DNA of 64,000 nucleotides from Candidatus Methylomirabilota bacterium (GTDB taxonomy: Bacteria; Methylomirabilota; Methylomirabilia; Rokubacteriales; CSP1-6), in assembly GCA_036556905.1 (NCBI GenBank), contig DATBIM010000156.1, positions 2,210-66,209 on the forward strand, given 5' to 3'. Below, piece after piece: positions 34,878 through 54,873 of the stretch. The notes under the pieces are model-generated. The model saw only the letters and a program-made list of their open reading frames with translations. It did no database searches and was not told where the DNA came from. Each line of letters opens with the position of its first letter. Position 1 is the first letter of the stretch. The translations under genes and the position numbers were made by a program.

Positions 34878-35162
34878 TTACGGCGAAGGGGGCTGAGTCC
34901 GAAGGACTGTCAGCACTCGCTGCTTGAGCTCGGGGGGGATCGAGACATCGCGCAGGCTGCGCGTGGCGCGGATGGTGCCCCGATAGGTGTTCAGAAAGGC
35001 TACGCAGGGAGCGCAGCCGTCGATGTGCCACTCCAGCAGCTCAGCGGTCCGGCGGGGCAGGGAGCCGTCGAGATAGTCCGCCAGCAGCTCCGCGATCTGT
35101 CGACACTCGATCTCGGAGGGTGCGGCGCCGGCCGGATCTGAAGACCCCCGGGTATCTGACAT
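34878..35162 (-). CDS. anti-sigma factor, zf-HC2 type
   Basis: HxxxCxxC motif (EWHIDGCAPC) in a 94 aa protein. No sigma gene adjacent. Confidence 0.5.
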   Translation of the reverse strand: MSDTRGSSDPAGAAPSEIECRQIAELLADYLDGSLPRRTAELLEWHIDGCAPCVAFLNTYRGTIRATRSLRDVSIPPELKQRVLTVLRTQPPSP

Positions 35163-36493: not shown

Positions 36494-37507
36494 ATGACGC
36501 AGGAGGCCAGGGTCCAGGAGTTCGTCGCCGGCTTCGGCGCGCTGCGGAGCGAGGTGGAGAAGATCATCGTCGGGCAGCGCGAGATCATCGATCACGTCCT
36601 CATCGGGATGTTCGCCGGTGGCCATCTGCTCCTGGAGGGCGTGCCGGGCCTGGGCAAGACGCTCCTCATCAAGACGCTAGCCGAAGGGCTGGAGCTGTCC
36701 TTCTCGCGCATCCAGTTCACGCCGGATCTCATGCCGGCCGACATCATCGGCACGAACATCATCGTGGAGGACGCCTCGGGCCGGAAGCACTTCGAGTTCC
36801 AGCACGGGCCCATCTTCGCCCATATTCTGTTAGCCGACGAGATCAATCGGGCCACGCCCAAGACGCAGTCGGCCCTGCTGGAGGGGATGCAGGAAGGCTA
36901 CGTCACCGTGGGCGGGGCCTCCCGGCCGCTGCCGGTCCCGTTCTTCGTCCTGGCCACACAGAATCCCATCGAGATGGAGGGCACCTACCCCTTGCCGGAG
37001 GCCCAGCTGGACCGCTTCATGTTCAAGCTGCGCGTGCGCTATCCCGCCATCGACGAGCTCAACGCGATCATCGATCGCACCACCCAGATCCGTCAGGTGG
37101 CGGTCCAGCGCGTGATGAGCGGGCCCGGTGTGATCGGTTATAGAGAGCTGATCCGCGAGGTGCCCATCGCCTCTCATGTCCGCGACTTCGCGTCGGCGGT
37201 GGTCATGGCTACGCACCCGGAGTGGGAGCACGCCCCCGACATCACCCGGCGCTTCGTCCGCTACGGAGCCAGCCCCCGGGGGGCTCAGGCGCTGGTGCTG
37301 GGGGCCAAGGTGCGGGCCTTGTGTCAGGGGCGATTCAATGTGAGCGTGGAGGATCTCAAGGCGCTGGCCGCGCCGGCGCTCCGGCACCGCGTGATCCTGA
37401 ACTTCGAAGGTGAGGCCGAGGCCGTGGACACCGACACGCTCATCGGCGATATCGTCGCCGGCGTCGAGCAACACGCGACGCAGGGCAAGGAGCTCTTTCT
37501 CCGCTGA
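36494..37507 (+). CDS. MoxR family AAA+ ATPase
   Basis: GVPGLGKT Walker A, …LLADEINRATPKTQSALLEGMQE…. Confidence 0.85.
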   Translation: MTQEARVQEFVAGFGALRSEVEKIIVGQREIIDHVLIGMFAGGHLLLEGVPGLGKTLLIKTLAEGLELSFSRIQFTPDLMPADIIGTNIIVEDASGRKHFEFQHGPIFAHILLADEINRATPKTQSALLEGMQEGYVTVGGASRPLPVPFFVLATQNPIEMEGTYPLPEAQLDRFMFKLRVRYPAIDELNAIIDRTTQIRQVAVQRVMSGPGVIGYRELIREVPIASHVRDFASAVVMATHPEWEHAPDITRRFVRYGASPRGAQALVLGAKVRALCQGRFNVSVEDLKALAAPALRHRVILNFEGEAEAVDTDTLIGDIVAGVEQHATQGKELFLR

Positions 37508-37525
37508 TCGCACCTGGAGGGCCTG

Positions 37526-38986
37526 ATGGCCGATAGGGACGAGCCTCTCCCCGAGCTCGACGCGCTGGTACGCCGCATCGTCAGCCAGGTGCGCTGGCGT
37601 CGGGCCGAGCACTTCGCGCTGCGCGGCGTGTTCTGGGGCGCCGTCGCTGGGGTCATCGTCCTGCTCCTGAAAGTTGTGGTCGGCGCCTACTGGGCGTCCG
37701 TCCTGGCCGGCGCCTTCGTCGTGGCTGGCCTCCTGGGGGGCGGCTGTTGGGGCCTGGCCCGCCGGGTGGCCCCGCTCGCGGCCGCCCGGCTCGGTGACCG
37801 GGCCTTCGGGCTGGAGGACCGTGTGGCCACCGCCCTGGAGTGGGCGGGCCGGGCCGACCGGACACCGCTGGTGGATTCGCTCATCGCCGACGCTCGCACG
37901 CGGGCGTCCCGGTTGACCCCACGTCAGATCGTGCCACGGGTACTGCCCCGCGAGGTGAAGTGGCTGCCGGCACCGGCGCTGGCGGCCCTCGTCCTGGTGC
38001 TGAGCCCTCCGGTGCCGCTCCCGGCCGGCCGGCTGTTCGACCTGCCGACCGGGGCCGAGGAGGCCGAGTCAACGGACCGATCGGCTGGTGACCTGCTTCA
38101 GGAAGACAAGCGGCCGGCGGCGAAGGATCCCCTCCGCCGCCCCGCTCTGGAGGAGCGCGACTACATGCCGCGGACGGCCGGGGGCGGAGCCCCGACCGCG
38201 GGAGATCTGAGCGCGATCTTCAAGGACACCTCGCTCGGCAACCAGCGGCCCGACTTCAACAGCTTCCTCAAGAAGGGCGACGAGCGCCTCAAGCTGCTCG
38301 AGCAGGTGGACCGCCTGCCCGATCTGCAGTCGGACTTCACGAACAATCAGTACAAGATGGTGTTCCGTAAGTCCAAGGCCCTGCGGGGCGGCCTGCGCCC
38401 GGATCAGATCTCGCCGCAGAAGCTGCGCGAGCTGCTCGAGGAGATGGAGCGCCTGGGCCGCAAGGGCGGCAACTGGAGTTCCGACGTGGGCGAGGGCATG
38501 GAGGCCCTGGAGTACGGCGACCAGGATCGCGCCATGGACGCCATGGAGAAGGCCCTCAACAAGCTCCGGGCCATGGAGGAAGGAAAGCGCTCGGGCCGGG
38601 GGCTTCGCGGTGGTCGCGAGACCGATCGCGACCGGGAGCGTGGCCGGGGCGGATCGAGCGCGGGTGGCGAGGATCCGGATTTCGGTGAGAGCGAAGGGCT
38701 GTTGCCCGGCAAGGGCAAGAGCCCTTCGCCGAAGGGCGAGGCCTCCAAGCGCTTGCGCGCCAACCCTTATGACGTGGGCGTGGAGGGCGAGTCCCGGCCG
38801 GGCCGCAAAGACGGCTATGACACGAACCTCACCGGGCGCGCCGGCCACACACCCTCCCGCCTCACTTACCTGGGGGTCATCGGCCAGTACCGCAAGGCGA
38901 TGGAGGATGCGCTGGTCCGCGAACAGGTGCCCCGTGACTACCACGAGCAGATTCGCGACTACTTCCAGTCCCTCGACGAGCGCTGA
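37526..38986 (+). CDS. hypothetical membrane protein with a long charged low-complexity region (Bat-cluster associated)
   Basis: Two N-terminal TM helices, RDRERGRGG-rich centre, conserved-looking C-terminus. Lies between MoxR and DUF58. Confidence 0.4.
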   Translation: MADRDEPLPELDALVRRIVSQVRWRRAEHFALRGVFWGAVAGVIVLLLKVVVGAYWASVLAGAFVVAGLLGGGCWGLARRVAPLAAARLGDRAFGLEDRVATALEWAGRADRTPLVDSLIADARTRASRLTPRQIVPRVLPREVKWLPAPALAALVLVLSPPVPLPAGRLFDLPTGAEEAESTDRSAGDLLQEDKRPAAKDPLRRPALEERDYMPRTAGGGAPTAGDLSAIFKDTSLGNQRPDFNSFLKKGDERLKLLEQVDRLPDLQSDFTNNQYKMVFRKSKALRGGLRPDQISPQKLRELLEEMERLGRKGGNWSSDVGEGMEALEYGDQDRAMDAMEKALNKLRAMEEGKRSGRGLRGGRETDRDRERGRGGSSAGGEDPDFGESEGLLPGKGKSPSPKGEASKRLRANPYDVGVEGESRPGRKDGYDTNLTGRAGHTPSRLTYLGVIGQYRKAMEDALVREQVPRDYHEQIRDYFQSLDER

Positions 38987-38989
38987 GCG

Positions 38990-39880
38990 GTGCCGGCGGC
39001 CACCCACCACGGCTTTTTCAGCTCGGAGTTCCTGGCCCAGCTCGAGCGCTTGACCCTGGCCTCCCGCCGCACCTTCCGGGGACGGGTGAAGGGCGAGCGG
39101 CGGAGCCCCCGCAGGGGGCAGAGCGTCGAGTTCGCCGACTACCGGCCCTACGGGATCGGAGACGACCTCCGGTACGTCGACTGGAACATCTACGGGCGGC
39201 TGGAGCGTCTGCACGTGAAGCTGTTCGTCGACGAAGAGGATCTCTGCGTGCATCTGCTCGTGGACGGGTCGAGCTCTATGGCCTTCGGCCAGCCGACCAA
39301 GCTGCGCTACGCGGCCCGGGTGGCGGCGGCGCTCGGCTTCGTGGGGCTGGTGAGCCTGGAGCGCGTGGGCATCGGTGTGCTTCGCGAGAAGGTGAGCGAA
39401 GGGTGGGCGCCCACTCGCGGGCGTAACCAGTTCGTGACGCTGGTGGACTTCCTCTCGCGACTCGAGGCCGGGGGGGCCACCAGCCTCAACCGCGGCCTGA
39501 GCGACTACGCCGTGCGCGCCCGCGAGCCGGGGCTGGCCATTCTGATCTCCGACCTGCTAGACCCTGCCGGCTTCGAGAGCGGGGTCCGGGCGCTGCTCGA
39601 GCGCCGGTTCGAGGTGCACGTGATCCACGTGCTGGCCGCGGAGGAGCTGCACCCCACCCTGGCCGGAGACCTCCGCCTGCACGACAGCGAGACCGACGCG
39701 ACGCTCGAGATCACCATCGACGGCGAGGCGCTGAGTGGTTATCGGCAGCGGCTCGGGCAGTTCCTGCAGCGGGTGGAGGAGTTCTGCCGTTCTCAGGAGA
39801 TCGGCTACCGGCGGGTGAGCACCGAGATCCCGGTGGAGGAGTTCGTCCTGTCCCACCTGCGGGGTCTGGTGCTGGGGTGA
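38990..39880 (+). CDS. DUF58 domain protein (MoxR-associated, VWA-like)
   Basis: …EFADYRPYGIGDDLRYVDWNIYGR… DUF58 signature. Confidence 0.75.
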   Translation: MPAATHHGFFSSEFLAQLERLTLASRRTFRGRVKGERRSPRRGQSVEFADYRPYGIGDDLRYVDWNIYGRLERLHVKLFVDEEDLCVHLLVDGSSSMAFGQPTKLRYAARVAAALGFVGLVSLERVGIGVLREKVSEGWAPTRGRNQFVTLVDFLSRLEAGGATSLNRGLSDYAVRAREPGLAILISDLLDPAGFESGVRALLERRFEVHVIHVLAAEELHPTLAGDLRLHDSETDATLEITIDGEALSGYRQRLGQFLQRVEEFCRSQEIGYRRVSTEIPVEEFVLSHLRGLVLG

Positions 39881-39890
39881 GGGAGGACCG

Positions 39891-42800
39891 GTGAGCTTCC
39901 TGACCCCTCTGGCCTTTGCCCTGCTCGGGCTGACCCTGCCCCTGGTATTGCTCTACTTCCTCAAGGTGCGACGGCGTCAACAACGGGTACCCAGCCTCCT
40001 CTTCTGGGAGGCGACGCTGCACGACCGTCAGGCCTCGGCATTCTTCCAGCGGTTGCAGCGCGATCCCCTCCTCATCCTCCAGATCCTGGCCCTGCTGGCG
40101 CTGACGCTGGCCCTGGCCCGGCCGGCCCTCACGGTGACCGGTGACGGTGCTCGCAAGGTGGCGGTGGTTCTGGACGGTTCCGCCTCGATGAAAACGCGCG
40201 ATGGCGGTGGGTCCCGGTTCGCCGCGGCCAGATCCGAAGCGGCGGCCATGGTGAGTCGGCTGGGTGAGGGGGCCGAGGTGCTGGTGGTGGAGACCGGCGC
40301 GCACCCCCGCGTACTGGCGCCGCTCTCGCGGGACCGCGATCGGGCTCTGGCCGCCATCCGTTCGGCACAGGCGCGCGACCTTCCCAATCGCCTGCCCGAG
40401 GCGCTGCGGACGGCGCGCGCGCTCGTGGGGGCCGACCCGACGGCCGAGATCTACGTGTACACGGACGGCGCGTTTACGCTGCCGCGGGCGCCGGAGACCA
40501 CCGACGGCCGGCTCCGCTGGATCGCGGTGGGAGGCGGAGGCCGCAACGTCGGCCTCACCAACCTGGCGGTGCGCAAGAGTTACCAGGGGTCCCCGGAGTA
40601 CCAGGCCTTCGCCTCCCTGGTGAACTATTCGTCGGACACCCAGACCTTCACGCTCAGGCTGGAGCTCGACGGCACGCTCATCGCCGAGAAGTCCTTGAGC
40701 CTGGAGCCCAACATCCGCCGTTCGGTGGTCCTGCCCTTCAGCCACACGGGCGGGGGCACCCTGAAGGCCGGCATCGACGTGCGCGACGACCTGGCTTCGG
40801 ACAACGTCGCCTACGCCGTGCTGCCGCCGCCCCGCAAGATCCAGGTCTTGCTGGTGAGTCGCGGCAATCTGTTCCTGGAAAAAGTCCTCCGCACCGATCC
40901 TCAGGTCGCGCTGGAGGTCCGCACGCCCGATCTGTACCAGGGCGGTATGGCCGAGGCCGACATCGTGATGCTGGATTCGACCGCGCCCGCCCGGGTGGGG
41001 CCGGGGCGGTTCTTCTTCGTCAACGTGGTGCCGCCCGACGTGCCGCTGGAGGCGTTGGGCCGTATTGAGCGGCCGACCATCATGGACTGGGACCGGGCCC
41101 ATCCGATCATGCGGCACGTCGAGCTGGCCAAGGTGGTCATCGAGGACGCGCTGCGCATCCGGCCTCTGGCTCCGGGGCGGCCGCTGGTGGAGGCGATCGG
41201 TGGTCCGCTCGTCTACGCCCTCGAGGAGGCGGAGCGCAAGGCCGTCTTCATCGGCTTCGACCTGTTCAAGACCGACTTCCCGCTGCGGGTGGCCTTCCCG
41301 CTGATCCTGTCCAACAGCCTGCGCTGGCTCCACCCGGCGGCCCTGGACCAGTCCAGCCTGCAGCTGGCTTCCGGGCAGCCGATCCTGCTGCCGGTCGAGC
41401 ACGGCGTGAGCTCGGTCACCGTCACCACGCCAGGCGGGCGCAGCACGAAGGCGCAGATCACCCGGGGCGTGGTGAGCTACGCCGAGACCGACGAGGTGGG
41501 GATCTATCGCTTCACGACCTCGCGGGGTGAGATGCGAGTGGCCGTCAACCTCGCTGACGCCGAAGAGTCCCACGTGCAGCCCCGGCCGCTGCCGGCGTCC
41601 GCGGGCCCGCCCCCGGAGGCCACGGTGCCGGTACCGGTGCAGCGGGAGCTGTGGCAGCTGTTCGTCCTGCTGGCGGTGATCCTGCTCGCCCTGGAAGGCG
41701 TGCTCTACTGGCGGCGTCAGAGCGGGCACTGGCCGATGCTGCCCCGGGTTTCCGGTGATCGCTGGGCGCTGGGGCTCCGAGCCGCCCTGCTCGTCGTGCT
41801 GTGCTCCACGCTGTTGAAGCCCACGCTGCCGCGGCTCGTCGACCGCCAGAACGTCATCTTCCTTTTCGATCACTCGGACAGCGTGAGCCTGGCCGCGCGA
41901 GAGCGCGCCTGGCGGTTCGCCGCGGAATCGATGAAGTCCATGCGTCCCGGTGATCGTGCCGGTGCGGTGGTGTTCGGCGAGGACGCAGTGGTCGATCAGC
42001 CGCTGGCCTCGCGGCCCACCCTGGAGCGTCCCCGGAGCCCGGTGGCCCCCCGCGGGACCAACCTGTTCCAGGCGGTCCAGCTGGCCCTGGCCACGCTGCC
42101 TCCCGGACACGCCAACCGCATCGTCATGCTGACCGACGGTCGCCAGACGAGCGGCAACGCGCTGGCGGCGGCCCAGGCGGCCAAGGACGCCGGCGCTGAC
42201 ATCTACTACGTGCCGGCGCCGCTCACCTTCGAGCAGGAGGTGGTGGCCGAATCCCTCGTGCTTCCACAGGAGGTGAAGTTCGGCGAGCCGTTCCAGGCCA
42301 AAGTGGTGGCGTGGAGCCTCAAGGACACCCAGGGGCGGCTCTCGCTCTTCCGCAACGGAGAGTTCCTGGGCTCCCAGGTAATCCGGCTCAACACGGGCAA
42401 GAACGTGTTCAGCTACCGCCAGTCGCTGGACTCCAGCGGGATCCACGTCTACCAGGCGGCCATCGAGGTCGACGGGGACACGATCGAAGACAACAACCGG
42501 GCGGTCGGTACGGTGGTCGTGCGAGGTCGGCCGCAGGTGCTGCTGGCCGAGAAGGACCGGAGCCACGCCCAGTCTCTGGTGGCCGCCCTGCGCTCGCAGA
42601 ACATCGAGGTGACCGTCGTCGAGGCCAACGGGATCCCCAAAGACGTGGCCGGCCTGCAGAAGTACGACGGTCTCATCCTCTCCAACATCTCGTCGCTCAA
42701 GCTCACCCGGGTCCAGATGGCGAACATTCGGGACTACGTCCGCGACTACGGGGGCGGCTTGATCATGGTGGGCGGTGAGGAGAGCTTCGGCCTCGGCGGC

Positions 42801-44300
42801 TACTACCGTACGCCGGTCGAGGAGGCGCTGCCCGTCACCATGGAGGTCAAGCAGAAGGTCGAGATCCCCAGCCTGGCCGTCGTCCTCTCGATCGACCGAT
42901 CGGGCTCGATGGCCATGTCGACCGGCGACGAGAAGGTCACCAAGCTGGACGTGGCCAAGGAAGCGGCCCACCTCGTCGTCGATCTCCTCGACGAACGCAA
43001 CGAGGTCGGGGTGCAAAGCTGGGACACCGAGTTCATCTGGGATGCCGCAATCCGGCCCGCTCGCGATCGGTCCGCCGTCCACCATGCCATCGCCACGATC
43101 AAGGCGGGTGGGGGAACGGACGGCTATCCGGCGCTCAAGGATACCTACTCGGTGCTCTTCGAGCGCCCGGCGCTCCTCAAGCACGTCATCTTCCTGTCCG
43201 ACGGCCAGATGACGCGTGGTGACTTCACGGGCCTGCTCCGCCGCATGGCCAAGGACAAGATCACGGTGTCGACGGTGGCCATCGGCAAGGACGCCGATCT
43301 GCAGCTCATGGTCGACATCGCCAAGTGGGGGCGAGGTCGCTTCTACTACACCGAGGACTCCCAGACCATCCCCAGGATCTTCACCCTGGAAACCCAGCTG
43401 GCCTCCAAGGCCTCGCTGATCGAGCAGCCCTTCCGGCCCCAGCTCACGGCACCTGGCCACGAGGCGATGCAGGACATCGAATGGCGCACGGCCCCGCCGC
43501 TGGGAGGCTATGTGGCCACGACGGTCAAAGGGACCGCCGAGCTCGTGCTCATGAGCCATCAGGAAGATCCGGTCCTGGCCACGTGGCGTTACGGGCTCGG
43601 GCGAACGGCGGCGTTCACCTCCGACGCCAAAGCCAAGTGGGGCGTCCTCTGGCTGCGCTGGCAGAATTTCAACAAGTTCTGGGCGCAGCTCACTCGCTGG
43701 ACCCTGCGCAGCTCGACGCGCTCGGATACGGTGGTTCTGGTGGAACGTCGCGATGGCATGGGGGAGGTCGTCGTCGATGCCGTGGACGTCAAAGGGGAGT
43801 TCATCAACTTCCTGGACTCCCAGGTCGGGGTGGTGGCGCCCAACCGGGAACGATCGGTCATCGATCTCGAGCAGGTGGCGCCGGGACGGTACCGGGGTCG
43901 CTTCCCGGCCTCCCAGGAGGGCGTCTACCTGATCGGCACGGCGCAGCGTCGGAACGAGCGGGTGATCGGCTCTCAATTGGCAGGACTAGTGATACCGTAT
44001 GCTCAGGAGTTCCGGGACCTCGGGGTGGATGAGACAGCGCTGCGGGAGCTGGCCGAGCTGTCCAACGGTGGCCCGCTGACTCAGCCCGGGGAGATATTCC
44101 TGAAGGCGCGCCGCGAGTCCCGGATCCCCGTGGACATGTGGCCCTGGCTTGTTGGCGCTGTGGCGGTCCTTTTGATTCCAGAGATTGCGCTCCGGCGGCT
44201 CGGCCCCGGGGCCCTGCGGTGGGGCCGGGCGCTCTTGTCCCGGCGCCCCGCAGGTGAGGGCGATGCACGGCCGGCGCGAGGAGGACATGATGGTGCGTGA
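39891..44300 (+). CDS. BatA-like aerotolerance/VWA giant fusion protein (1469 aa)
   Basis: N-terminal MSFLTPLAFALLGLTLPLVLLYFLK (BatA N-terminal domain). Three VWA-like segments (VAVVLDGSASM, VIFLFDHSDSVSL, AVVLSIDRSGSMA). Mid-protein TM helices and a GATase1-like segment. Confidence 0.7.
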   Translation: MSFLTPLAFALLGLTLPLVLLYFLKVRRRQQRVPSLLFWEATLHDRQASAFFQRLQRDPLLILQILALLALTLALARPALTVTGDGARKVAVVLDGSASMKTRDGGGSRFAAARSEAAAMVSRLGEGAEVLVVETGAHPRVLAPLSRDRDRALAAIRSAQARDLPNRLPEALRTARALVGADPTAEIYVYTDGAFTLPRAPETTDGRLRWIAVGGGGRNVGLTNLAVRKSYQGSPEYQAFASLVNYSSDTQTFTLRLELDGTLIAEKSLSLEPNIRRSVVLPFSHTGGGTLKAGIDVRDDLASDNVAYAVLPPPRKIQVLLVSRGNLFLEKVLRTDPQVALEVRTPDLYQGGMAEADIVMLDSTAPARVGPGRFFFVNVVPPDVPLEALGRIERPTIMDWDRAHPIMRHVELAKVVIEDALRIRPLAPGRPLVEAIGGPLVYALEEAERKAVFIGFDLFKTDFPLRVAFPLILSNSLRWLHPAALDQSSLQLASGQPILLPVEHGVSSVTVTTPGGRSTKAQITRGVVSYAETDEVGIYRFTTSRGEMRVAVNLADAEESHVQPRPLPASAGPPPEATVPVPVQRELWQLFVLLAVILLALEGVLYWRRQSGHWPMLPRVSGDRWALGLRAALLVVLCSTLLKPTLPRLVDRQNVIFLFDHSDSVSLAARERAWRFAAESMKSMRPGDRAGAVVFGEDAVVDQPLASRPTLERPRSPVAPRGTNLFQAVQLALATLPPGHANRIVMLTDGRQTSGNALAAAQAAKDAGADIYYVPAPLTFEQEVVAESLVLPQEVKFGEPFQAKVVAWSLKDTQGRLSLFRNGEFLGSQVIRLNTGKNVFSYRQSLDSSGIHVYQAAIEVDGDTIEDNNRAVGTVVVRGRPQVLLAEKDRSHAQSLVAALRSQNIEVTVVEANGIPKDVAGLQKYDGLILSNISSLKLTRVQMANIRDYVRDYGGGLIMVGGEESFGLGGYYRTPVEEALPVTMEVKQKVEIPSLAVVLSIDRSGSMAMSTGDEKVTKLDVAKEAAHLVVDLLDERNEVGVQSWDTEFIWDAAIRPARDRSAVHHAIATIKAGGGTDGYPALKDTYSVLFERPALLKHVIFLSDGQMTRGDFTGLLRRMAKDKITVSTVAIGKDADLQLMVDIAKWGRGRFYYTEDSQTIPRIFTLETQLASKASLIEQPFRPQLTAPGHEAMQDIEWRTAPPLGGYVATTVKGTAELVLMSHQEDPVLATWRYGLGRTAAFTSDAKAKWGVLWLRWQNFNKFWAQLTRWTLRSSTRSDTVVLVERRDGMGEVVVDAVDVKGEFINFLDSQVGVVAPNRERSVIDLEQVAPGRYRGRFPASQEGVYLIGTAQRRNERVIGSQLAGLVIPYAQEFRDLGVDETALRELAELSNGGPLTQPGEIFLKARRESRIPVDMWPWLVGAVAVLLIPEIALRRLGPGALRWGRALLSRRPAGEGDARPARGGHDGA

Positions 44301-45645
44301 CCTCCGACGAGGATTGACTCTGTCGCTGACCATCCTGGTCGCGGTCCTGGGGCCGCCGGGCCTGGCCGGTGCCGCCCCTGCCGCTAAACCCCAGGTGGTG
44401 CTGGTCATGCCGTTCGACGCCAGCGGGACCGGGGCCGATTGGGCGTGGGTGGGCCAGGCAGTGGCCGAGGTGCTGACCCTGGGCTTGAGCCAGCATCCGG
44501 CGTTCGTCCAGATCGACCCGGCTCGGCTTCGGGCCTTCGGACAGCCGGAGGCCTGGGGCGAGAGCGCCGTTGTCCAGGCCGCCCGCTCGTTACGCGCCGA
44601 CACGGCGCTGTTCGGAACGGTAACCCGCGCCGGCTCCGACTTCACCATTCGGGCCCGGCTGCTCGAGGTCAAGGGCACGGGAGCCGATGTCATCGGGCTC
44701 GAGCCGCTGACGTTCCCCGGGGACGAGCTGCTGGCTCAGCTGCCCGGCCTGGTCAGCACCTACGCGCGGACGATGAAAGTCCCGCTGACCGACGCGGAAA
44801 CCGCCCGCATCGAGAAGGCGGCGCGGCCGACCAACACGCTGAGGGCCTTCGAGCTCTACGCGCGCAGTCAGCAGGCGGCCTACCGCGGCGGCCAGGAGGG
44901 CAACGAGAGCGCGGCTGACCTGCTGGCCCGGGCCATCGAGGCCGACCCGAGCTTTGTGGTCGCTCAATACTCCCTAGGCCGGGTGCATCAGGCGCTGGGC
45001 AACCGCTGGAAGGCGGCGGCGCAGTATCGGGCCGCCACTCAGCTCGATCCCCTCTACCCCGAGCCCTACAAGGCCCTGGGCGACTTGCTGCTGTTGGCGC
45101 CGCGCCGGCTCTTTGACCAAGCCGTGGAAGCCTACCAGAAGGCCATCGAGCGACGCCCGTTCTACGCCGACGCCCACGTGGGACTGGGTGACGCTCTGGC
45201 CGCCAAGGGAGATGTGGACGGGGCCATCAACGCCTACCAGCGGGCCCTGACCTTCCACACCGCCAACCCGCGGGTCCATGTGAGCCTCGGCAAGATTTAT
45301 TACAGCGAGAAGGGGCTCTATTACGAGTCCGTGAATGCTTACAAACGCGCGATCGATCTGGACGCGCGGTCGATCGAGGCCCGGATGGGCCTGGGCGAAG
45401 TCTACGAGGAAAAGGGTCTGTACAAGGAAGCGATCGACGAGTACCGGCGGGTGATCGAGACCGAGCCGTTGCACGCGGAGGCCCTCTACAATCTGGCCCT
45501 GGTCTACGAGAAGGTGGACCCGCGTGAGGCGATCACCCACTGGGAGCGCTACATCGCGCTGGCCTCGCAGATTCCCGCGCAGAAGGATTGGGTCGACGTC
45601 GCCCGCCAGCACCTGCGCAAGCTGCGGAACCAGGTCAAGGACTAG
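44287..45645 (+). CDS. TPR-repeat protein with signal peptide (BatC-like)
   Basis: N-terminal signal peptide and multiple 34-aa TPR repeats (…AYQKAIE…P.YA.AH..LG…). ATG overlaps the upstream stop. Confidence 0.7.
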   Translation: MMVRDLRRGLTLSLTILVAVLGPPGLAGAAPAAKPQVVLVMPFDASGTGADWAWVGQAVAEVLTLGLSQHPAFVQIDPARLRAFGQPEAWGESAVVQAARSLRADTALFGTVTRAGSDFTIRARLLEVKGTGADVIGLEPLTFPGDELLAQLPGLVSTYARTMKVPLTDAETARIEKAARPTNTLRAFELYARSQQAAYRGGQEGNESAADLLARAIEADPSFVVAQYSLGRVHQALGNRWKAAAQYRAATQLDPLYPEPYKALGDLLLLAPRRLFDQAVEAYQKAIERRPFYADAHVGLGDALAAKGDVDGAINAYQRALTFHTANPRVHVSLGKIYYSEKGLYYESVNAYKRAIDLDARSIEARMGLGEVYEEKGLYKEAIDEYRRVIETEPLHAEALYNLALVYEKVDPREAITHWERYIALASQIPAQKDWVDVARQHLRKLRNQVKD

Positions 45646-45874
45646 CCAGGAGCTCCTGCAGTCGGGCCTTGTCGAACCCGACGACGACCTGACCGTCCAC
45701 CACGATCACCGGGATGGACATGCGTCCGGTGAGCCGGATGAGCTCCTCTCGGGCTTCAGCGCTCTCGACCACGTTGACATCCTGGTAGGCGACGTTCTGA
45801 GACGAAAGAAACTCTTTCGCCGCGCGGCATGGGCCTCAGGTGGGACTCGAATACACGACGACGACGCGCGCCAT
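45635..45874 (-). CDS. glutaredoxin-like (NrdH/YruB-type) selenoprotein, active site U-G-P-C (UGA at 45836-45838)
   Basis: Minus-strand ATG 45874: MARVVVVYSSPT-U-GPCRAAKEFL…IPVIVVDGQVVVGFDKARLQELL. The frame is continuous through the UGA. Classic small Grx fold with Sec in place of the first Cys. Confidence 0.6.
45803..45819 (-). promoter_or_regulatory. candidate SECIS hairpin for the Grx-like UGA
   Basis: mRNA CGAAAGA-GUU-UCUUUCG, about 16 nt after the UGA. Confidence 0.4.
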
Positions 45875-45910
45875 GGCCTCCTCCGATTTGTGTCGTCCTG
45901 CCGGCCGGCC

Positions 45911-45925
45911 CCCGTATGATCCTAT
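45911..45925. promoter_or_regulatory. palindrome ATCCTA-TCT-TAGGAT in a divergent promoter region
   Basis: Perfect 6-3-6 inverted repeat between the divergently transcribed Grx-like selenoprotein and galT-like genes. Confidence 0.35.
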
Positions 45926-45986
45926 CTTAGGATGCGCGGGCCGGGTGAGCCGGTTCTCGGCCCCGACCGGGTGAGCGGGAGGCCAT

Positions 45987-46970
45987 GTGGACGAGCTGAG
46001 GAAGGATCCGACACGGGGCCGCTGGGTCCTGGTCCGGCCCAAGCCGAGACCAGAGTCGGACGGCGAGTGTCCGTACTGTCCGGGGACGGAAAACCTGACC
46101 ACGGAGATCGCCGCCTACCGTGAGAACGGCTCGCCACCGGGGGGACCGGGCTGGACCGTGAGGGTGGTGCCGGCCGGCGACCCATACTTCCGCATCGAGC
46201 GGGAATTGATTCGAGAGGGCGTCGGCATGTTCGACATGATCACGCCTCGGGGTGCGGGCGAGCTCATCCTGGACTCCCCCCGCCACGACGCCACGCTGGC
46301 CACCATGGAGCCGACCCAGATCGAGGCGGTCCTCTGGATGTATCGAGATCGGATCCTCGATCTCAAGCGGGACAGCCAGATCCGCGACATCCTGGTTCTG
46401 CGCCACCACAAGAAGCCGGGTGTCCCTCCTCACCATCCCTACTCCCGGGTGACCGCGATTCCCATCGTCTTCGACGAGACCCGGCGCGAGCTGCGAGAGG
46501 CGCGCGAATACTATCAGTACAAGCGGCGTTGCCTGTACTGCGACATGGTACGTCAGGAGATCGCCGCCGAGGAGCGCGTGATCAAGTTGACGCCTGCCTT
46601 CGTGGCCCTGGTGCCGTACGCCGCCCGGGCTCCGCTGGAGACCTGGATCCTTCCGCGCCAGCACGGCTGCACCTACGAGGAGGCCATGACCCCGCAAACG
46701 GTGGGCGATCTGGCCCGCCTGCTCTCCCAGTATTTCCGCACGCTGGCCAAGGGCTTTGCGGACCCTGGGTACGAGATGGTTCTGCACAACGCCCCGAATC
46801 TGAAGTCCCGTATCCTCCAGGGGGATTGGGCTACCATCCGGGACGACTACCACTGGCATATCGAGGTGGTGGGCAACCCGGAGCGGACCAATCGGGTGGG
46901 CGGGATCTTCGTGAACGAGAAACCCCCGGAGACGACCGCCGCCGAGCTGCGCCAGGTCTGGGAAGGCTAG
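45987..46970 (+). CDS. galactose-1-phosphate uridylyltransferase-like (GalT/HIT-superfamily nucleotidyltransferase)
   Basis: N-terminal CPYCPG zinc motif and GalT-like two-half-site layout. GTG start. Confidence 0.55.
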   Translation: MDELRKDPTRGRWVLVRPKPRPESDGECPYCPGTENLTTEIAAYRENGSPPGGPGWTVRVVPAGDPYFRIERELIREGVGMFDMITPRGAGELILDSPRHDATLATMEPTQIEAVLWMYRDRILDLKRDSQIRDILVLRHHKKPGVPPHHPYSRVTAIPIVFDETRRELREAREYYQYKRRCLYCDMVRQEIAAEERVIKLTPAFVALVPYAARAPLETWILPRQHGCTYEEAMTPQTVGDLARLLSQYFRTLAKGFADPGYEMVLHNAPNLKSRILQGDWATIRDDYHWHIEVVGNPERTNRVGGIFVNEKPPETTAAELRQVWEG

Positions 46971-47071: not shown

Positions 47072-47503
47072 ATGCTGCGATTCACCAAGCGCGCTGACTA
47101 CGGACTGATGGCGATCTACTACATCGCCGTGCACGAGGACGGCGGGGCTGTCAGCGCCAAGCGGATCGCGGAAGAATTCGGGATTCCGCCCGAGCTTCTG
47201 GCCAAGATCCTCCAGCGGCTGGCCCGCGAGCGACTGATCGTGAGTCAGAACGGCCCCAAGGGGGGGTACGTGCTGAGCCGGCGGCCCAGTGAGGTCACGG
47301 TGGGGGAAGTGCTCCGCGCCATCGAAGGCCCGATCAACATCGTGAGTTGTCTCGAGGACTCCGAGTGTCCCCAGATCGAGCGGTGCAACCTGCGGCGTCC
47401 GGTTCAGAAGATCCAGGCCGCCATCACGCAACTGCTGGACACGATGAGCCTGGCCGAGCTGGGGGGCCAAGACGTGCCCCTGCTGCTGGCCATCAAGGGA
47501 TGA
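47072..47503 (+). CDS. iscR: Rrf2-family Fe-S cluster regulator IscR
   Basis: MLRFTKRADYGLMAIYY… wHTH and C-terminal C…C…C ligands. First gene of the isc operon. Confidence 0.8.
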   Translation: MLRFTKRADYGLMAIYYIAVHEDGGAVSAKRIAEEFGIPPELLAKILQRLARERLIVSQNGPKGGYVLSRRPSEVTVGEVLRAIEGPINIVSCLEDSECPQIERCNLRRPVQKIQAAITQLLDTMSLAELGGQDVPLLLAIKG

Positions 47504-47522
47504 GGGTGAGGGGAGCGCATCG

Positions 47523-48749
47523 ATGACCGTGAAGTTTCCCATTTTCCTGGACGCGCAATCGACGACCCCCTGTGATCCCCGGGTGGTCGAGGCCATGTTG
47601 CCGTACTTCACCGAGAAATTCGGGCACCCGGCCAGTCGCAACCACCCCTTCGGCTGGGAGGCCGAGGGGGCCTGCGACGCGGCTCGGGCCAGCATCGCGC
47701 GACTGATCGGCGCGCGCGATCCCAAGGAAGTGGTGTTCACCTCGGGGGGCACAGAGGCGATCAACCTCGCCCTCAAGGGTGCCGCCGAGATGTACCGGGA
47801 GAAGGGGACACACATCGTCACCACCGTCATCGAGCAGCGGGCGGGGATCGACACCTGCAAGCGTCTGGAGCGGCAGGGGTTCCAGGTGACGTATGTGCCG
47901 GTGCAGTCCAACGGGCTCGTCGACGTCGAGGAGATCGGCCGGGCCGTCACCAACGCGACGATTCTCATCTCGGTGATGTTCGCCAACAACGAGATCGGGA
48001 CGATCCAGGACGTCGCCGCCATCGGAAGGCTGGCCAAGGACAGGGGCATCATCTTCCACACCGATGCCACCCAGGCCGTAGGCAAGATCCCGGTCGACGT
48101 GGAGGCCATGGGCATCGACCTCCTGTCCTGCACGGCCCACCTCATGTACGGGCCCAAAGGGGTCGGTGCGCTCTACGTCCGCCGCAAGGCGCCGCGGGTC
48201 CGCCTGGCCGCGCTCCTCGATGGGGGCGGTCATGAGCGCGGCCTCCGCTCGGGGACGTTGCCGGTTCCCCTCTGCGTCGGCTTCGGCCGGGCGGCCGAGA
48301 TCTGTCGGGAGGTCATGCCGGAGGAGAGCCAGCGCCTGGGCAAGCTCCGGGACCAGCTTCAAGATTTCATCCTGGCCAACGTGGAGGATGCTTACCTCAA
48401 CGGTGATCCCGATCGGCGGCTGCCCCACAACCTCAACGTGTCGTTCGCCTACGTGGAGGGAGAGTCGGTGCTGATGGGGCTGAACAAGGAGACCGCGCTC
48501 AGCTCGGGCTCGGCCTGCACCTCGTCGACCCTGGAGCCCTCGTACGTGATCGCGGCCCTGGGGGCCAGCGCGGAGCTGGCCCACTCGTCGATCCGGTTCA
48601 GCCTGCACCGGTTCACCACCCAGGCTGAGATCGACTGGGTCGGCCGGCGGACGGTGGAGGTTGTCAAACGGCTACGGGACATGTCGCCGCTCTACGAGCT
48701 GGCGAAAGAAGGTGTGGATCTGAAGTCCATCCAGTGGAAGGCCGAGTAG
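47523..48749 (+). CDS. iscS: cysteine desulfurase IscS
   Basis: PLP-dependent class V motifs and the SSGSACTS active-site Cys loop. Confidence 0.9.
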   Translation: MTVKFPIFLDAQSTTPCDPRVVEAMLPYFTEKFGHPASRNHPFGWEAEGACDAARASIARLIGARDPKEVVFTSGGTEAINLALKGAAEMYREKGTHIVTTVIEQRAGIDTCKRLERQGFQVTYVPVQSNGLVDVEEIGRAVTNATILISVMFANNEIGTIQDVAAIGRLAKDRGIIFHTDATQAVGKIPVDVEAMGIDLLSCTAHLMYGPKGVGALYVRRKAPRVRLAALLDGGGHERGLRSGTLPVPLCVGFGRAAEICREVMPEESQRLGKLRDQLQDFILANVEDAYLNGDPDRRLPHNLNVSFAYVEGESVLMGLNKETALSSGSACTSSTLEPSYVIAALGASAELAHSSIRFSLHRFTTQAEIDWVGRRTVEVVKRLRDMSPLYELAKEGVDLKSIQWKAE

Positions 48750-48760
48750 GGGGACGGGCC

Positions 48761-49153
48761 ATGGCCTACAGCGAGAAGGTCGTCGACCACTACAACAACC
48801 CCCGCAACGTGGGGTCCTTCGGCAAGGACCTGCCGAACGTGGGCACCGGTCTGGTGGGGGCGCCGGAGTGCGGCGATGTCATGAAGCTCCAGATCAAGGT
48901 GAACCCCTCCACCGGCGTGATCGAGGACGCGAAGTTCAAGACCTTCGGGTGCGGGAGCGCCATCGCTTCGTCGAGCCTGGCGACCGAGTGGCTCAAGGGC
49001 AAGACCCTGGACGAAGCGGCCAAGATCCGTAACACCGAGATCGTGAACGAGCTCAAGCTACCGCCCGTCAAGATCCACTGCTCGGTCCTGGCCGAGGATG
49101 CCATCAAGGCGGCCCTGGCCGACTATCAGGCCAAGCACGGCGCGGGGCGGTAA
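48761..49153 (+). CDS. iscU: Fe-S cluster scaffold IscU
   Basis: MAYSEKVVDHYNNPRNVG…GAPECGDVMKLQ…LPPVKIHCS. Confidence 0.9.
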   Translation: MAYSEKVVDHYNNPRNVGSFGKDLPNVGTGLVGAPECGDVMKLQIKVNPSTGVIEDAKFKTFGCGSAIASSSLATEWLKGKTLDEAAKIRNTEIVNELKLPPVKIHCSVLAEDAIKAALADYQAKHGAGR

Positions 49154-49178
49154 AGTAAGGATTGGGAGGTCGCGTCCG

Positions 49179-49508
49179 ATGGCAGTGGCACTGACCGAAA
49201 CGGCCGTGAAGCAGGTGAAGGAGCTCAAACAGGCCCAGAACCTGGGCGACGAGGTCTTTCTCCGGATGGGTGTCCGGGGTGGCGGGTGCTCGGGCATGTC
49301 ATACGCCCTGGAGTTCGACACCGAGAAGACGGCGCATGACCGGGAGTTCGAGATCGACGGCATCAAGGTGATCGTCGACAAGAAGAGCTACCTGTATCTG
49401 ACTGGCACGACGCTCGACTATGTCCGGGAGGGCCTTACCGGCGGATTTACGTTCGTCAACCCGAACGCCAAGTCGTCCTGTGGGTGCGGGACGTCGTTTT
49501 CGGCGTAG
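49179..49508 (+). CDS. iscA: iron-sulfur cluster insertion protein IscA/ErpA
   Basis: …GGGCSGMSY…CGCGTSF C-terminus. Confidence 0.85.
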   Translation: MAVALTETAVKQVKELKQAQNLGDEVFLRMGVRGGGCSGMSYALEFDTEKTAHDREFEIDGIKVIVDKKSYLYLTGTTLDYVREGLTGGFTFVNPNAKSSCGCGTSFSA

Positions 49509-49530
49509 CCGGGGCCCGGCGAACGGCGGC

Positions 49531-49560
49531 AAACGGGCCCCTGGGGGCCCGTTTTATTTT
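49531..49560 (+). terminator. rho-independent terminator between iscA and hscB
   Basis: AAACGGGCCCC-TGG-GGGCCCGTTT followed by TATTTT. Confidence 0.7.
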
Positions 49561-49573
49561 GGCAGCCTGAAGG

Positions 49574-50164
49574 ATGGGGGCCCTGGCGACGATCATGGAC
49601 TACTTCGAGGTGTTCGGATTGCCCCGCCGTCTGGGGATCGATGCCCAGACGCTGCAGCGCCGGTTCTACGAGCTGTCGCGACGCTACCACCCTGACTTTC
49701 ACGCGGGCGCGCCGCGCGAGGAGCAGGCGCGGACCCTGGAGGCCTCGGCCCGATTGAACGCGGCCTACCGGGCGTTGCGCGATCCCATCGCCCGGATCGA
49801 GTATCTCGTGCAGCTGGAAGAGGGTCGGCAAACCAGGGAAGGCGCGACGGTCAAGCCCCAGGCGCCTGCCGAGCTGCTGGCCGAGATGTTCGAGATCCAG
49901 GAGGCGCTGGACGAGACCCGGGCGGGTGACCTGGCCGAGACGGCCCGGGAGACCCTCCGCGCCCAGCGCGAGCGGCTGATGGCGCGGCGGCGGGAGGAGG
50001 GCGTGCGCCTCACCGGTCCGCTGGCCGCGGCCTGGGATGCCGCCGGCCCGGGCGAGCGTTCCGCCCTGCTCGAGGAGCTCAAGCGGGCACTGGCCGCCCG
50101 CGCCTACCTCCAGACCGTCATCGATGACCTCGCCCAGGCGCTGGGCGACGACGAGGCCCCCTAG
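49574..50164 (+). CDS. hscB: Fe-S co-chaperone HscB (J-domain)
   Basis: J-domain …YHPD… and HscB helical C-terminal domain. Confidence 0.75.
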   Translation: MGALATIMDYFEVFGLPRRLGIDAQTLQRRFYELSRRYHPDFHAGAPREEQARTLEASARLNAAYRALRDPIARIEYLVQLEEGRQTREGATVKPQAPAELLAEMFEIQEALDETRAGDLAETARETLRAQRERLMARRREEGVRLTGPLAAAWDAAGPGERSALLEELKRALAARAYLQTVIDDLAQALGDDEAP

Positions 50165-50167
50165 CCC

Positions 50168-52021
50168 ATGGGACGGATCGTGGGCATCGATCTGGGCACG
50201 ACCAACAGCCTGGTCGCTTACGTGGACGAACGCACGGGACTGCCCGAGGCCATTGCCGACGCCGAGGGGCACCGGCTGCTGCCCTCGGTCGTGGCCTTCA
50301 CGCCGCAGGGGATCCTGGTGGGCGAGGCGGCCCGGCGCTACCTGGTTCGACGGCCGGAGGCGACCGTGTACTCGGTGAAGCGATTCATGGGGCGTAGCTA
50401 CGAGGACGTCAAGGAGGAGCTACGCTACTTCCCGTTCGCGGTCCGGCCGGCCGACGGGATCGTGCGTCTGCAGGTGGGGGACCGCGAGGTCACTCCGCCC
50501 GAAGTGTCGGCGGTCATCCTCAAGACGTTGAAGGAGCGGGCGGAGGGGCATTTCGGCGAGCCGGTCGAGAAGGCGGTCATCACCGTGCCCGCCTACTTCA
50601 ACGACAGCCAGCGGCAAGCCACCCGCGACGCCGGGCGCATCGCCGGGCTGGAGGTCGCCCGCATCCTGAATGAGCCGACGGCGGCTTCGCTCGCCTATGG
50701 CCTCCACCGGCTACGTGAGGGCGTCATCGCCGTCTACGACCTGGGCGGGGGCACCTTCGACATCTCGATTCTGCGCGTCAAGGGCGGCATCTTCGAGGTC
50801 CTGGCCACGAACGGCAACACGCACCTCGGCGGCGACGACTTCGATCGCGTGCTCATGCTGTGGCTGCTCGAGGACATCCAGGCCCGTCACCATCGGGACC
50901 TGGCCTGCCGGCCAGTCGACCTCGCCCGCGACAACGAGGCCATGCAGGAGCTCAGGCTGGCCGCGGAGGCCGCGAAGATCCGTCTCTCCAGCGAGGAGCG
51001 GACCACGCTCATCCTCCCCTTCGAGGACTTCATCTACCGGCGAGAGATCACTCGGGCGGAGCTGGAGCGGCTCCTGGAGCCACTGGCCCAGAAGACCCTG
51101 GGGCCCTGCCGTCAGGCGCTGGCCGATGCCGGGCTGGGGCCGGACGGCATCGACGACGTGGTGCTGGTGGGGGGCTCCACCCGGGTCCCTCTGGTGCGGC
51201 AGCGGGTGCAGCAGTTGTTCGGCAAGACCCCCCACAGCCAGCTCAATGCCGACGAGGTGGTGGCCCTGGGGGCGGCGGTGCAGGCGCACATCCTGGCGGG
51301 CGGCATCAGCGACATGCTGCTGCTCGATGTGACCCCCCTGTCGCTGGGGATCGAGACGCTGGGGGGCATCGTGAGCGTTCTCATCCCCCGCAACACCACC
51401 ATTCCGACCAGCGCCCGAGAGATGTTCACGACGTCCGCCGATGGCCAGACGGTGGTCGACCTGCACGTGGTGCAGGGCGAGCGGGAGCTGGCCCGAGACT
51501 GCCGGTCGCTGGCTCGCTTCGAGCTGCGGGGGATCGATCCGATGCCGGCGGGGATGCCCAAGATCGAGGTGACGTTCCTGATCGACGCCGATGGCATTCT
51601 CAAGGTCACGGCCCGCGAGCTCCGCACGGGGAAGGTGGCCGCGATCGACGTCACCCCGACCTACGGCCTGACCGAGGGTGAGATCGAACGCATGGTGGAG
51701 GACTCTTTCCAGTATGCCGAGGCCGACGTGGAGGCCCGGATGCTGATCGAGGTCCGCAACGAGGCCGACACGGTGATGACCCATGTTCGTCGCGCCCTCA
51801 AGCAGGGTGGGCATCTGGTGACGGAGGCGGAGGGGGCCCACATCACGGCGGTCCTGGAGGAGCTGGCGCGGGTCCGCGAGACGGACGAGCGCGAGCTCAT
51901 CCGCAGCAAGACGGTGGAGCTCAATCGCGTGACCGAGCGCCTGGCCCAGGTGTTGATGGACGCGGCCCTGCAGGGAGCCCTGGGGACGCGCCGCGCCGCC
52001 GAGCTCATGGAGTCGGAGTGA
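50168..52021 (+). CDS. hscA: Fe-S chaperone HscA (Hsp70 family)
   Basis: [21 protein letters not shown] Hsp70 motifs; 617 aa. Confidence 0.85.
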
Positions 52022-52344
52022 TGGCGGTGCACCGGGTGACGTTCCTGCCTCTCAACGCCACCGTGGAGGTCGACGACGAGAAGTACCCCCTGGCCGATCA
52101 CGGCAAGCCCGGCTCGCTGCTGGATATCGCGCTGGCCCATCACATCCACCTCGACCACAACTGTGGGGGGAGCTGCGCCTGCACCACCTGCCACGTGATC
52201 GTGAAGGAAGGCGAGGCGAATCTCTCCCCGATGCAGACCGACGAGGAGGATCGTCTCGACACGGCCGAGGGACTGACCATTCATTCCCGCCTGGGCTGCC
52301 AGGCGGTGGTGCGAGGCGACGTGGTTGTGGAGATCCCGAAATGA
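52018..52344 (+). CDS. fdx: ISC-system [2Fe-2S] ferredoxin
   Basis: C…CGGSCACTTCH…C adrenodoxin-type motif. Confidence 0.8.
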   Translation: MMAVHRVTFLPLNATVEVDDEKYPLADHGKPGSLLDIALAHHIHLDHNCGGSCACTTCHVIVKEGEANLSPMQTDEEDRLDTAEGLTIHSRLGCQAVVRGDVVVEIPK

Positions 52345-53715: not shown

Positions 53716-54873
53716 ATGAGCCGGCGGGTCTATCTCGATCACAACGCCTCCACGCCCGTTCATCCCGACGTCGTTGACGCGATGCTGCCGTACCTGGGTG
53801 AACGGTTCGGGAACCCATCCAGCGTTCATGGCTTCGGCCGGGAGGCCCGCGACGGCGTGGAGCAGGCCCGCGAGCGGGTCGCGAGCCTGCTGGGTGTCTC
53901 GCCCGAGGAGATCGTGTTCACCTCGGGCGGTACGGAGTCCGACAACCTCGGGATCAAGGGCCTGGCCGGGGCCGGCCCCCGCGGTCACCTCATCACCTCG
54001 CAGATCGAGCATCCCGCCGTGCTCCGCACGTGCCAGGCGCTGGAAGCCGAGGGCTTTGCCGTCACCTACCTGCCGGTGGACGAGCACGGCGTGGTCGATC
54101 CTGGCGACGTCAAGCGGGCCATCCGCCCCGACACCCGCGCCATCAGCGTCATGCACGCCAACAGCGAGATCGGCACCGTGCAGCCGGTGGCCGCCATCGG
54201 CGCCATCGCCCGCGAGCACGGCATCGCCTTGCACGTGGACGCCGTGCAGACCTTCGGGAAGATTCCCCTGGATCTGACCGCGCTGGCCATCGACGCCATG
54301 TCGGTATCCGCCCACAAGATTTATGGCCCCAAAGGGGTGGGTGCCCTCTTCGTCCGCCGGGGGACGCGGATGGTGGGGATCCAGCATGGTGGTGAGCACG
54401 AGCGACGGCGGCGGGCCGGCACCGAGAACGTCCCGGGCATCGTGGGCTTCGGCCGGGCCGTGGAGATCCGGTCCCGCGAGATGGGGCCGGAGGCCGAGCG
54501 CCTGCGTGCGCTGCGCGACCGGTTAACGGATGGTGTGCGGGCCCGTCTGGACGAGGTCCGGCTCATCGGGCATCCCGGGGAGCGGCTCCCCGGGACGGCG
54601 AATCTCGCCTTCCGCCACGTGGAGTCGGAGTCCATCGTCCTCGGGCTGGATCTCAAGGGCGTGGCCGTGTCGGCCGGCACAGCGTGCACCGCCGGCCATG
54701 TGGAGCCCTCCCACGTGCTGACGGCGCTGGGGCTGCCGCCGGCGTGGGCGATGGGCGCGGTGCGGTGCTCCCTGGGCCGCTCCACCACGGCCCAGGACAT
54801 CGACTACGTCATCGAGTGCCTGGAGGCGGTGGTGGGGAAGCTGCGCCGCCTGCTCCCGACAGGGCCCGCATGA
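53716..54873 (+). CDS. NifS/IscS-type cysteine desulfurase (second copy)
   Basis: Class V aminotransferase fold motifs; active loop SAGTACTAG. Confidence 0.8.
   Translation: MSRRVYLDHNASTPVHPDVVDAMLPYLGERFGNPSSVHGFGREARDGVEQARERVASLLGVSPEEIVFTSGGTESDNLGIKGLAGAGPRGHLITSQIEHPAVLRTCQALEAEGFAVTYLPVDEHGVVDPGDVKRAIRPDTRAISVMHANSEIGTVQPVAAIGAIAREHGIALHVDAVQTFGKIPLDLTALAIDAMSVSAHKIYGPKGVGALFVRRGTRMVGIQHGGEHERRRRAGTENVPGIVGFGRAVEIRSREMGPEAERLRALRDRLTDGVRARLDEVRLIGHPGERLPGTANLAFRHVESESIVLGLDLKGVAVSAGTACTAGHVEPSHVLTALGLPPAWAMGAVRCSLGRSTTAQDIDYVIECLEAVVGKLRRLLPTGPA

Follow-up and report, generated by a model that had tools for sequence, protein, structure and literature searches.

A predicted selenocysteine-containing glutaredoxin of the YruB/Cp9 type in a Candidatus Methylomirabilota genome

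The DNA stretch analysed here, hereafter called the window, comprises 64,000 nucleotides of a Candidatus Methylomirabilota bacterium (assembly GCA_036556905.1, contig DATBIM010000156.1). Its minus strand carries a small gene, termed grx in this study, whose reading frame is interrupted by an in-frame TGA at codon 13. We are highly confident that grx encodes a thiol-disulfide oxidoreductase of the YruB/Cp9 type, in which this UGA is decoded as selenocysteine (Sec) by means of a hairpin acting as selenocysteine insertion sequence (SECIS). The gene is a further member of the known and characterised Grx UxxC selenoprotein family, and its recognition is mainly a correction of the annotation. Within this family, grx is marked by the U-G-P-C variant of its active site, by its wrongly shortened public gene calls, and by its occurrence in a phylum whose selenoproteome has come to attention only of late. 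As family, motif and decoding mechanism are already established, grx opens no new question; the public calls for grx and dozens of its orthologues lack the active site, and the correction restores a complete redox protein.

Reading frame, family and the Sec/Cys position

From the ATG at position 45874, the frame translates as MARVVVVYSSPT-TGA-GPCRAAKEFLSSQNVAYQDVNVVESAEAREELIRLTGRMSIPVIVVDGQVVVGFDKARLQELLASP-stop, with GPCRAAKEFL...LLASP following the TGA (Table 1). The orthologues also start with an ATG, located 12–14 codons upstream of the TGA, and the codons for VxVYSSPT ahead of the TGA are conserved among the homologous loci. A scan for consensus promoters and terminators around grx gave no match. 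The program-made list of open reading frames (ORFs) cuts the gene at the TGA into the ORF 45836..46102 and a remnant of 45 amino acids at 45635..45772, both on the minus strand. The public gene call for grx in the window is likewise a fragment of 45 amino acids (P0017) that begins at an internal GTG, and the matches to grx in protein databases are mostly fragments of 45–66 amino acids with assorted ATG or GTG starts past the active site. Such a pattern is typical of gene callers that halt at an in-frame TGA. A preliminary description of this DNA had reported that the minus-strand frame from ATG 45874 is broken by the UGA in the ORF list and that it overlaps the end of a convergent TPR gene by 11 nt. 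Our translation agrees with both points, the plus-strand TPR ORF ending at 45645 and sharing 45635..45645 with grx. The observation that codon 52 is the sole Met downstream of the TGA also stands; yet GTG codons are present, and one of them was used as the start in the public call.

For the assignment to a protein family, U was treated as C in the profile searches of grx and of the selenophosphate synthetase gene selD described below. The grx product matched the Pfam family Glutaredoxin (PF00462) with 73.3 bits (E = 1.8e-20, cut-off 22.9) and the NCBIfam family TIGR02196 of YruB-family glutaredoxin-like proteins with 90.6 bits, narrowly over the curated cut-off of 88.55. It could be aligned over its full length to the solved chains 7c10 and 3zij, including U13/C16, P55 in the cis-Pro segment and G66-F67. 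By these alignments, the product is a 79-residue thioredoxin-fold protein of the YruB/Cp9-type glutaredoxin-like family. The earlier classification as a canonical NrdH/YruB-type small glutaredoxin was therefore right with respect to YruB, but not to NrdH-redoxin, for which TIGR02194 yielded 54.6 bits against a cut-off of 85.75; moreover, the motif is U-G-P-C instead of C-V-Q-C, and there is no nrdHIEF operon. Two further candidates were rejected. In glutaredoxin-like selenoproteins of the UXX-star family, Sec is positioned three residues before the stop codon, and grx scored 63.3 bits with NF041212 (cut-off 66) and ends with LLASP-stop, with no penultimate UGA. A thioredoxin is not supported by PF00085 (16.9 bits, cut-off 23.5) or by the length of 79 residues in comparison to the approximately 105 residues of the thioredoxin fold with its extra N-terminal beta-alpha unit; the sole thioredoxin-like trait of the grx motif is the G-P dipeptide (WCGPC in thioredoxin).

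The nature of codon 13 was assessed by a scan of one genome per species, which provided 80 related loci (L001–L080) that were translated in frame. The first active-site codon is TGA in 48 and TGC or TGT in 32 of these loci, and all non-TGA homologues carry the catalytic Cys at the position of grx codon 13. This supports the earlier proposal that Sec replaces the first active-site Cys, for which Cys homologues at the same position had been named as the relevant comparison. The closest of them, P0001, has the motif T-C-G-P-C and is 67% identical to grx. The TGA is present in 19/19 syntenic orthologues from Rokuibacteriota/Methylomirabilota (L001–L019), which are loci of metagenome-assembled genomes (MAGs) from different studies, L004 being nearly identical to the window, which therefore derives from a member of the Rokuibacteriota. 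When the Sec forms are aligned, the column of Cys16 (TGC/TGT) shows no variation, and it corresponds to Cys16 of 7c10. The TGA forms of Rokuibacteriota/Methylomirabilota read U-G-P-C (U-V-P-C in L017 and L019), and those of a second paralogue group of the same phyla U-Q-S-C (U-R-S-C in L054). U-G-Y-C is found in Dehalococcoidia, U-P-Y-C in other Chloroflexota (U-P-W-C in L079), U-G-A-C (L026) and U-P-H-C (L077) in Thermodesulfobacteriota, and U-P-H-C in a Clostridia MAG.

The short public calls, together with the use of TGA as a normal stop in the host genome, would fit the assumption that the TGA of grx is a genuine stop codon, either in a decaying pseudogene or between a leader of 12 codons and a fragment of 45–66 amino acids translated from an internal GTG. 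We regard this as very unlikely. According to the alignment with 7c10, the fragment would lose the whole active site as well as strand beta-1, and the internal start positions vary among homologues, as expected of arbitrary choices made by gene callers. In addition, the TGA, the in-frame codons upstream of it, the ATG and the Shine-Dalgarno sequence are conserved in all 19 syntenic orthologues and across several phyla, and the hairpin codons discussed below are under RNA-level selection only where the TGA is present. Most ordinary genes of the window stop at TGA, and the genetic code is therefore not reassigned. It might also be suspected that the true codon is TGC or TGT, from which TGA is separated by one base, and that an assembly or sequencing error occurred in this uncultured, metagenome-type source. 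Given that the identical TGA with its flanks is present in four independent JGI assemblies, a sequencing error is excluded, and with the TGA in the 19 orthologous MAG loci this explanation is effectively refuted.

The hairpin downstream of the UGA

A SECIS-like hairpin with a stem of 9 bp lies within the coding sequence and begins 14 nt past the UGA (Table 1). The shorter hairpin CGAAAGA-GUU-UCUUUCG, which had previously been located about 16 nt after the UGA, does begin at that distance and forms the 7-bp core of this longer stem. The loop G is found 23 nt after the A of the UGA. Bacterial SECIS elements are stem-loops directly after the UGA that present a G in a small apical loop, and the grx hairpin fits this description (PMC1088965).

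For nucleotides 12–45 after the codon, the 49 Sec forms, made up of the window and the 48 TGA loci, had a median local folding energy of -10.7 kcal/mol, compared with -5.9 kcal/mol for the 32 Cys forms (Mann-Whitney p = 2e-10). A corresponding difference is seen in codon usage. While the rare codons AAA, TTT and CTT account for 9.3%, 9.2% and 2.8% of synonymous usage in the genes of the window, the Sec forms encoding K-E-F-L employ AAA in 42/43, TTT in 39/43 and CTT in all 43 genes. Among the five Cys forms encoding K-E-F-L, AAA occurs in two and CTT in one, and P0001 has AAG ... CTG at these positions, resulting in a mismatch of the stem. When 47 distinct sequences of Sec forms are aligned, 92.9% of the stem cells are paired. 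In three stem pairs both partners have changed, as in L007, where A-U is replaced by G-C, and in Dehalococcoidia, where G-C is replaced by C-G. These comparisons indicate that the hairpin codons are under RNA-level selection where the TGA is present. That the hairpin hardly varies across phyla is best explained by a double constraint, as the peptide is conserved and the stem is needed. A sequence-specific requirement of SelB is an unlikely cause of this invariance, because the other two selenoprotein genes of the window have quite different hairpins. The AKEFLS codons represent an example of dual coding, specifying both a peptide and the putative SECIS, with rare codons kept in a genome of 69% GC.

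Several observations weigh against this interpretation. Folding of the single grx sequence, which is GC-rich, was not significantly better than that of shuffled sequences (z = -0.5 to -1.1), and the SECIS call therefore rests on comparative evidence. No SECIS family was matched by an Rfam scan of 45740..45880 at E <= 10, and at gathering thresholds the scan of the whole window revealed neither a SECIS nor any other RNA family. The covariation of the stem is modest, as the stem is almost invariant, and this invariance is partly due to the conservation of the AKEFLS peptide. Furthermore, ARAGORN found no tRNA, and hence no tRNA-Sec, in the 64-kb window, and NCBIfam scans of about 20 larger ORFs detected no selA or selB in it.

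With selA, selB and selC not seen in the window, and with the inserted residue being indistinguishable by sequence analysis alone, one may ask whether a standard amino acid such as Trp, Cys or Gly is inserted during read-through of the UGA, either through near-cognate suppression or because of a local recoding signal. This is very unlikely, given that the position is occupied by the catalytic Cys in every non-TGA homologue and that selD of the window is itself a TGA form at the known Sec/Cys position. The hairpin has the form of a bacterial SECIS with a small, G-first apical loop about 23 nt after the UGA (PMC1088965), and the closest relative to have been characterised, in which residue 13 is Sec, is a proven selenoprotein (PMC4479559, PMC7642778). 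We therefore retain the decoding of codon 13 as Sec as the preferred explanation.

Relation to characterised redoxins and proposed catalysis

The best solved relative of grx is chain 7c10_A with 48% identity over 77 residues (E = 1e-17). It contains C-P-H-C at residues 13–16, and the chain of 7c12/7c13 contains C-P-H-S. Judged by their sequences, these chains appear to be the U13C (dithiol) and U13C/C16S (monothiol) forms, respectively, of Clostridium oremlandii Grx1. This selenoprotein glutaredoxin of Clostridium (Alkaliphilus) oremlandii OhILAs was reportedly characterised by Kim et al. in 2011. The native Grx1 is described as a selenoprotein with a U(C)PXC site that works as a thiol-disulfide reductase and reduces selenoprotein MsrA (PMC7642778, PMC4479559). 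It resembles the predicted grx product in size (79 residues in grx, 84 in the chain of the Protein Data Bank) and in having Sec as residue 13 and a resolving Cys as residue 16. Both also contain K-E-F-L-S past the active site, VPVI as the cis-Pro segment and a VGFD motif. In contrast to grx, its site is U-P-H-C instead of U-G-P-C and its host is a Firmicute rather than a member of the high-GC Rokuibacteriota, and no selenoprotein MsrA partner was seen near grx.

Similarities extend to redoxins without Sec. The N-terminal motif [IV]x[ILV][YF][ST] of the Cp9/YruB redoxins, represented by Cp9 of Clostridium pasteurianum, is present in grx as VVVYS, and grx shares with Cp9, NrdH and BC3987 the conserved Pro, the Gly-Phe pair and a Leu; its G-P dipeptide is within the reported active-site range C-[PGI]-[PYWQ]-C (PMC3720550). 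Cp9 has Cys where Sec is predicted for grx, and its gene lies in an operon, between those of an NADH-dependent protein resembling thioredoxin reductase (TrxR) and of a peroxiredoxin, whereas grx has the TPR/Bat cluster on one side and, on the other, a GalT-like gene ahead of iscR-iscS-iscU. NrdH-redoxin is alike in its small glutaredoxin-like fold of about 75–80 residues and has the N-terminal motif as well as Pro and Gly-Phe in common with grx. The UXX-star selenoproteins (NF041212 and subfamilies) have a related glutaredoxin-like fold but differ from grx, where the predicted Sec is part of an N-terminal UxxC. Selenoproteins of the latter type have long been known, as 10 glutaredoxin UxxC sequences were identified in the Sargasso Sea in 2005 (PMC1088965) and Grx (PF00462, UxxC) is listed among the experimentally verified selenoprotein families (PMC9312934, PMC13188914). 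By description, the Sargasso Sea proteins and Geobacter WP_010943784.1 correspond to grx in belonging to PF00462, in the UxxC motif and in a SECIS directly after the UGA, the small apical loop of which contains a G (PMC1088965, PMC13188914); they derive from marine and deltaproteobacterial lineages, however, and not from Rokuibacteriota.

On the basis of what is known of this family, we hypothesize that the in-frame hairpin 14 nt past the UGA acts as a bacterial SECIS. Binding of SelB with Sec-tRNA(Sec) to this hairpin would lead to the insertion of Sec at codon 13 instead of termination, and the selenophosphate for Sec synthesis would be provided in trans by selD, which is 13 kb away. The selenolate of Sec13 could then attack a substrate disulfide or an oxidised Cys or Sec, and Cys16 would resolve the mixed selenenylsulfide. 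The resulting Se-S bond might be re-reduced by a TrxR-like flavoprotein or by glutathione. Glutathione has been discussed with C. oremlandii Grx1 (PMC7642778, PMC4479559), and in C. pasteurianum Cp9 transfers electrons from the NADH-dependent TrxR-like protein to peroxiredoxin (PMC3720550). The archaeon Methanoregula has a fusion protein of a Cys-form glutaredoxin and a TrxR-like pyridine-nucleotide disulfide oxidoreductase (L075 3001..4176, 392 amino acids; Pfam Glutaredoxin and Pyr_redox_2), and the same fusion was assigned by sequence clustering to L061, L068, L072, L073 and L078. Because these relatives are fused to a TrxR-like oxidoreductase, they hint at a flavoprotein reductase as the reductant of the grx clade.

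Two other gene forms were encountered among the related loci. The second paralogue group (L020, L021, L025, L027–L031, L035, L040, L045–L054) has the signature YWSST-U-QSC-HAAKEFLSS with the same SECIS hairpin. According to Pfam, its neighbours encode MerR-type regulators, an HMA metal-binding domain, MerB (alkylmercury lyase) and a LysW-like zinc ribbon, a context that resembles mercury or metal resistance and is unlike that of grx in the window. Dehalococcoidia and other Chloroflexota have proteins of about 170 amino acids in which the Sec-glutaredoxin domain is followed by a PDZ domain at the C-terminus (Pfam Glutaredoxin and PDZ_2; L038, L056, L058, L059, L064, L066, L071, L074, L079 and L080), and the glutaredoxin-PDZ fusion also exists in Cys versions, e.g., in L023.

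Selenium genes and gene neighbourhood in the window

Table 1. Location of the grx elements and of further selenium-related genes in the window
Feature	Position	Strand	Remarks
Sec glutaredoxin (grx), predicted coding sequence	45874..45635	minus	79 codons including predicted Sec13; TGA stop at 45637..45635
In-frame TGA, codon 13	45838..45836	minus	predicted Sec13, first residue of the U-G-P-C site
Cys16 codon TGC	45829..45827	minus	predicted resolving residue of the UxxC motif
Shine-Dalgarno sequence GGAGGAGG	45884..45877	minus	2 nt before the ATG at 45874
SECIS-like hairpin GGCGAAAGA-GUU-UCUUUCGUC	45821..45801	minus	9-bp stem inside the coding sequence, codons A-A-K-E-F-L-S-S
selD (selenophosphate synthetase), predicted Sec form	32001..33062	plus	in-frame TGA at 32049..32051; TIGR00476
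Selenium metabolism-associated LysR family regulator	31090..32004	plus	NF040786, 305.6 bits (cut-off 250)
UGSC family (seleno)protein gene	20429..20959	plus	TGA at 20708..20710; NF041046, 144.7 bits (cut-off 125)

SelD is the selenium donor enzyme required for the synthesis of Sec-tRNA. Its gene was found in the window by tblastn with the SelD whose gene neighbours that of the Cys homologue in locus L081, and its product scored 347.6 bits with TIGR00476 (cut-off 125). From the GTG at 32001, which overlaps the TGA stop of the LysR regulator gene, it reads VTGKEIRLTAYASCAG-TGA-ASKMAP... (...YASCAG-U-ASKMAP...), whereas the ORF list begins selD at 32061, past its TGA. From the sequence of E. coli SelD, we take this TGA to be at the Sec/Cys position. 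It is followed by a hairpin that has a perfect stem of 8 bp and the loop GAUC (z = -2.2). The gene of the UGSC family protein is also cut at its TGA in the ORF list; it reads ...VVVAGIGD-U-GSCSSGS... and has a hairpin with a GUG loop after the TGA, the loop G lying 19 nt past the UGA. The hairpins of grx, selD and the UGSC gene have in common small loops that start with G at positions 23–27 (U of the UGA being 1). A relaxed scan of the window for genes with an in-frame TGA returned the UGSC gene only and missed grx as well as selD, and is hence not exhaustive.

A literature search for Rokubacteria and selenocysteine retrieved nothing relevant. A review mentions 63 predicted selenoprotein genes in a MAG of the Methylomirabilota (PMC13188914). 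Together, grx, the Sec-form selD and the UGSC gene add to the evidence for heavy selenium use in Rokuibacteriota/Methylomirabilota, a lineage that is frequent among the MAGs from soil and groundwater that this analysis recovered.

The order BatA/VWA, TPR, grx (on the opposite strand), GalT-like, Rrf2, IscS and IscU is common to the window and its 19 closest loci (L001–L019), the section from grx over the GalT-like gene and Rrf2 to IscS being kept in most of L002–L018. The gene of the GalT-like HIT enzyme is transcribed divergently from grx. This arrangement in nearly all 19 orthologous loci raises the question of whether the U-G-P-C Sec-glutaredoxin of Rokuibacteriota, rather than being a general redoxin, is a dedicated partner of the GalT-like enzyme and the iscR-iscS-iscU operon, or serves selenium trafficking to SelD; in both cases, it might reduce persulfide or perselenide intermediates. 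The idea of trafficking to SelD derives from the divergent pairing of the closest Cys homologue with selD in L081. Synteny within one phylum is weak evidence, and we consider such a dedicated role unlikely.

In L081, P0001 (3001..3240, plus strand) is divergently paired with a Cys-form selD (1511..2563, minus strand; ...AHGGGCGCKLAP...), and this single locus ties the glutaredoxin clade to selenium metabolism. In the window, selD is followed by a gene for a TlpA/ResA-like thiol-disulfide oxidoreductase (33075..33620, WCPPC). Between this gene and that of a glycosyltransferase is the ORF 33613..35031 (minus strand), which has the size of SelA (472 amino acids) and gave no NCBIfam match at E <= 1e-10.

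The ISC cluster for Fe-S assembly (47072..52344, plus strand) begins 1.2 kb from the start of grx. Pfam supports Rrf2/IscR, IscS, IscU and a HscB-like protein with DnaJ domain, while IscA (49098..49508), HscA (50168..52021) and a ferredoxin (52018..52344) are candidates by position and size only. It is followed by a NifS-like cysteine desulfurase gene (53716..54873, plus strand; TIGR03402 509 bits, slightly under the cut-off of 530.75). On the other side of grx, a Bat/MoxR-type cluster (36494..45645, plus strand) encodes a MoxR AAA ATPase, an unannotated protein of 486 amino acids, a DUF58 protein, a protein of 1469 amino acids and the TPR protein. The 1469-residue protein has a BatA N-terminus and, in addition, several VWA domains as well as a GATase1-like domain.

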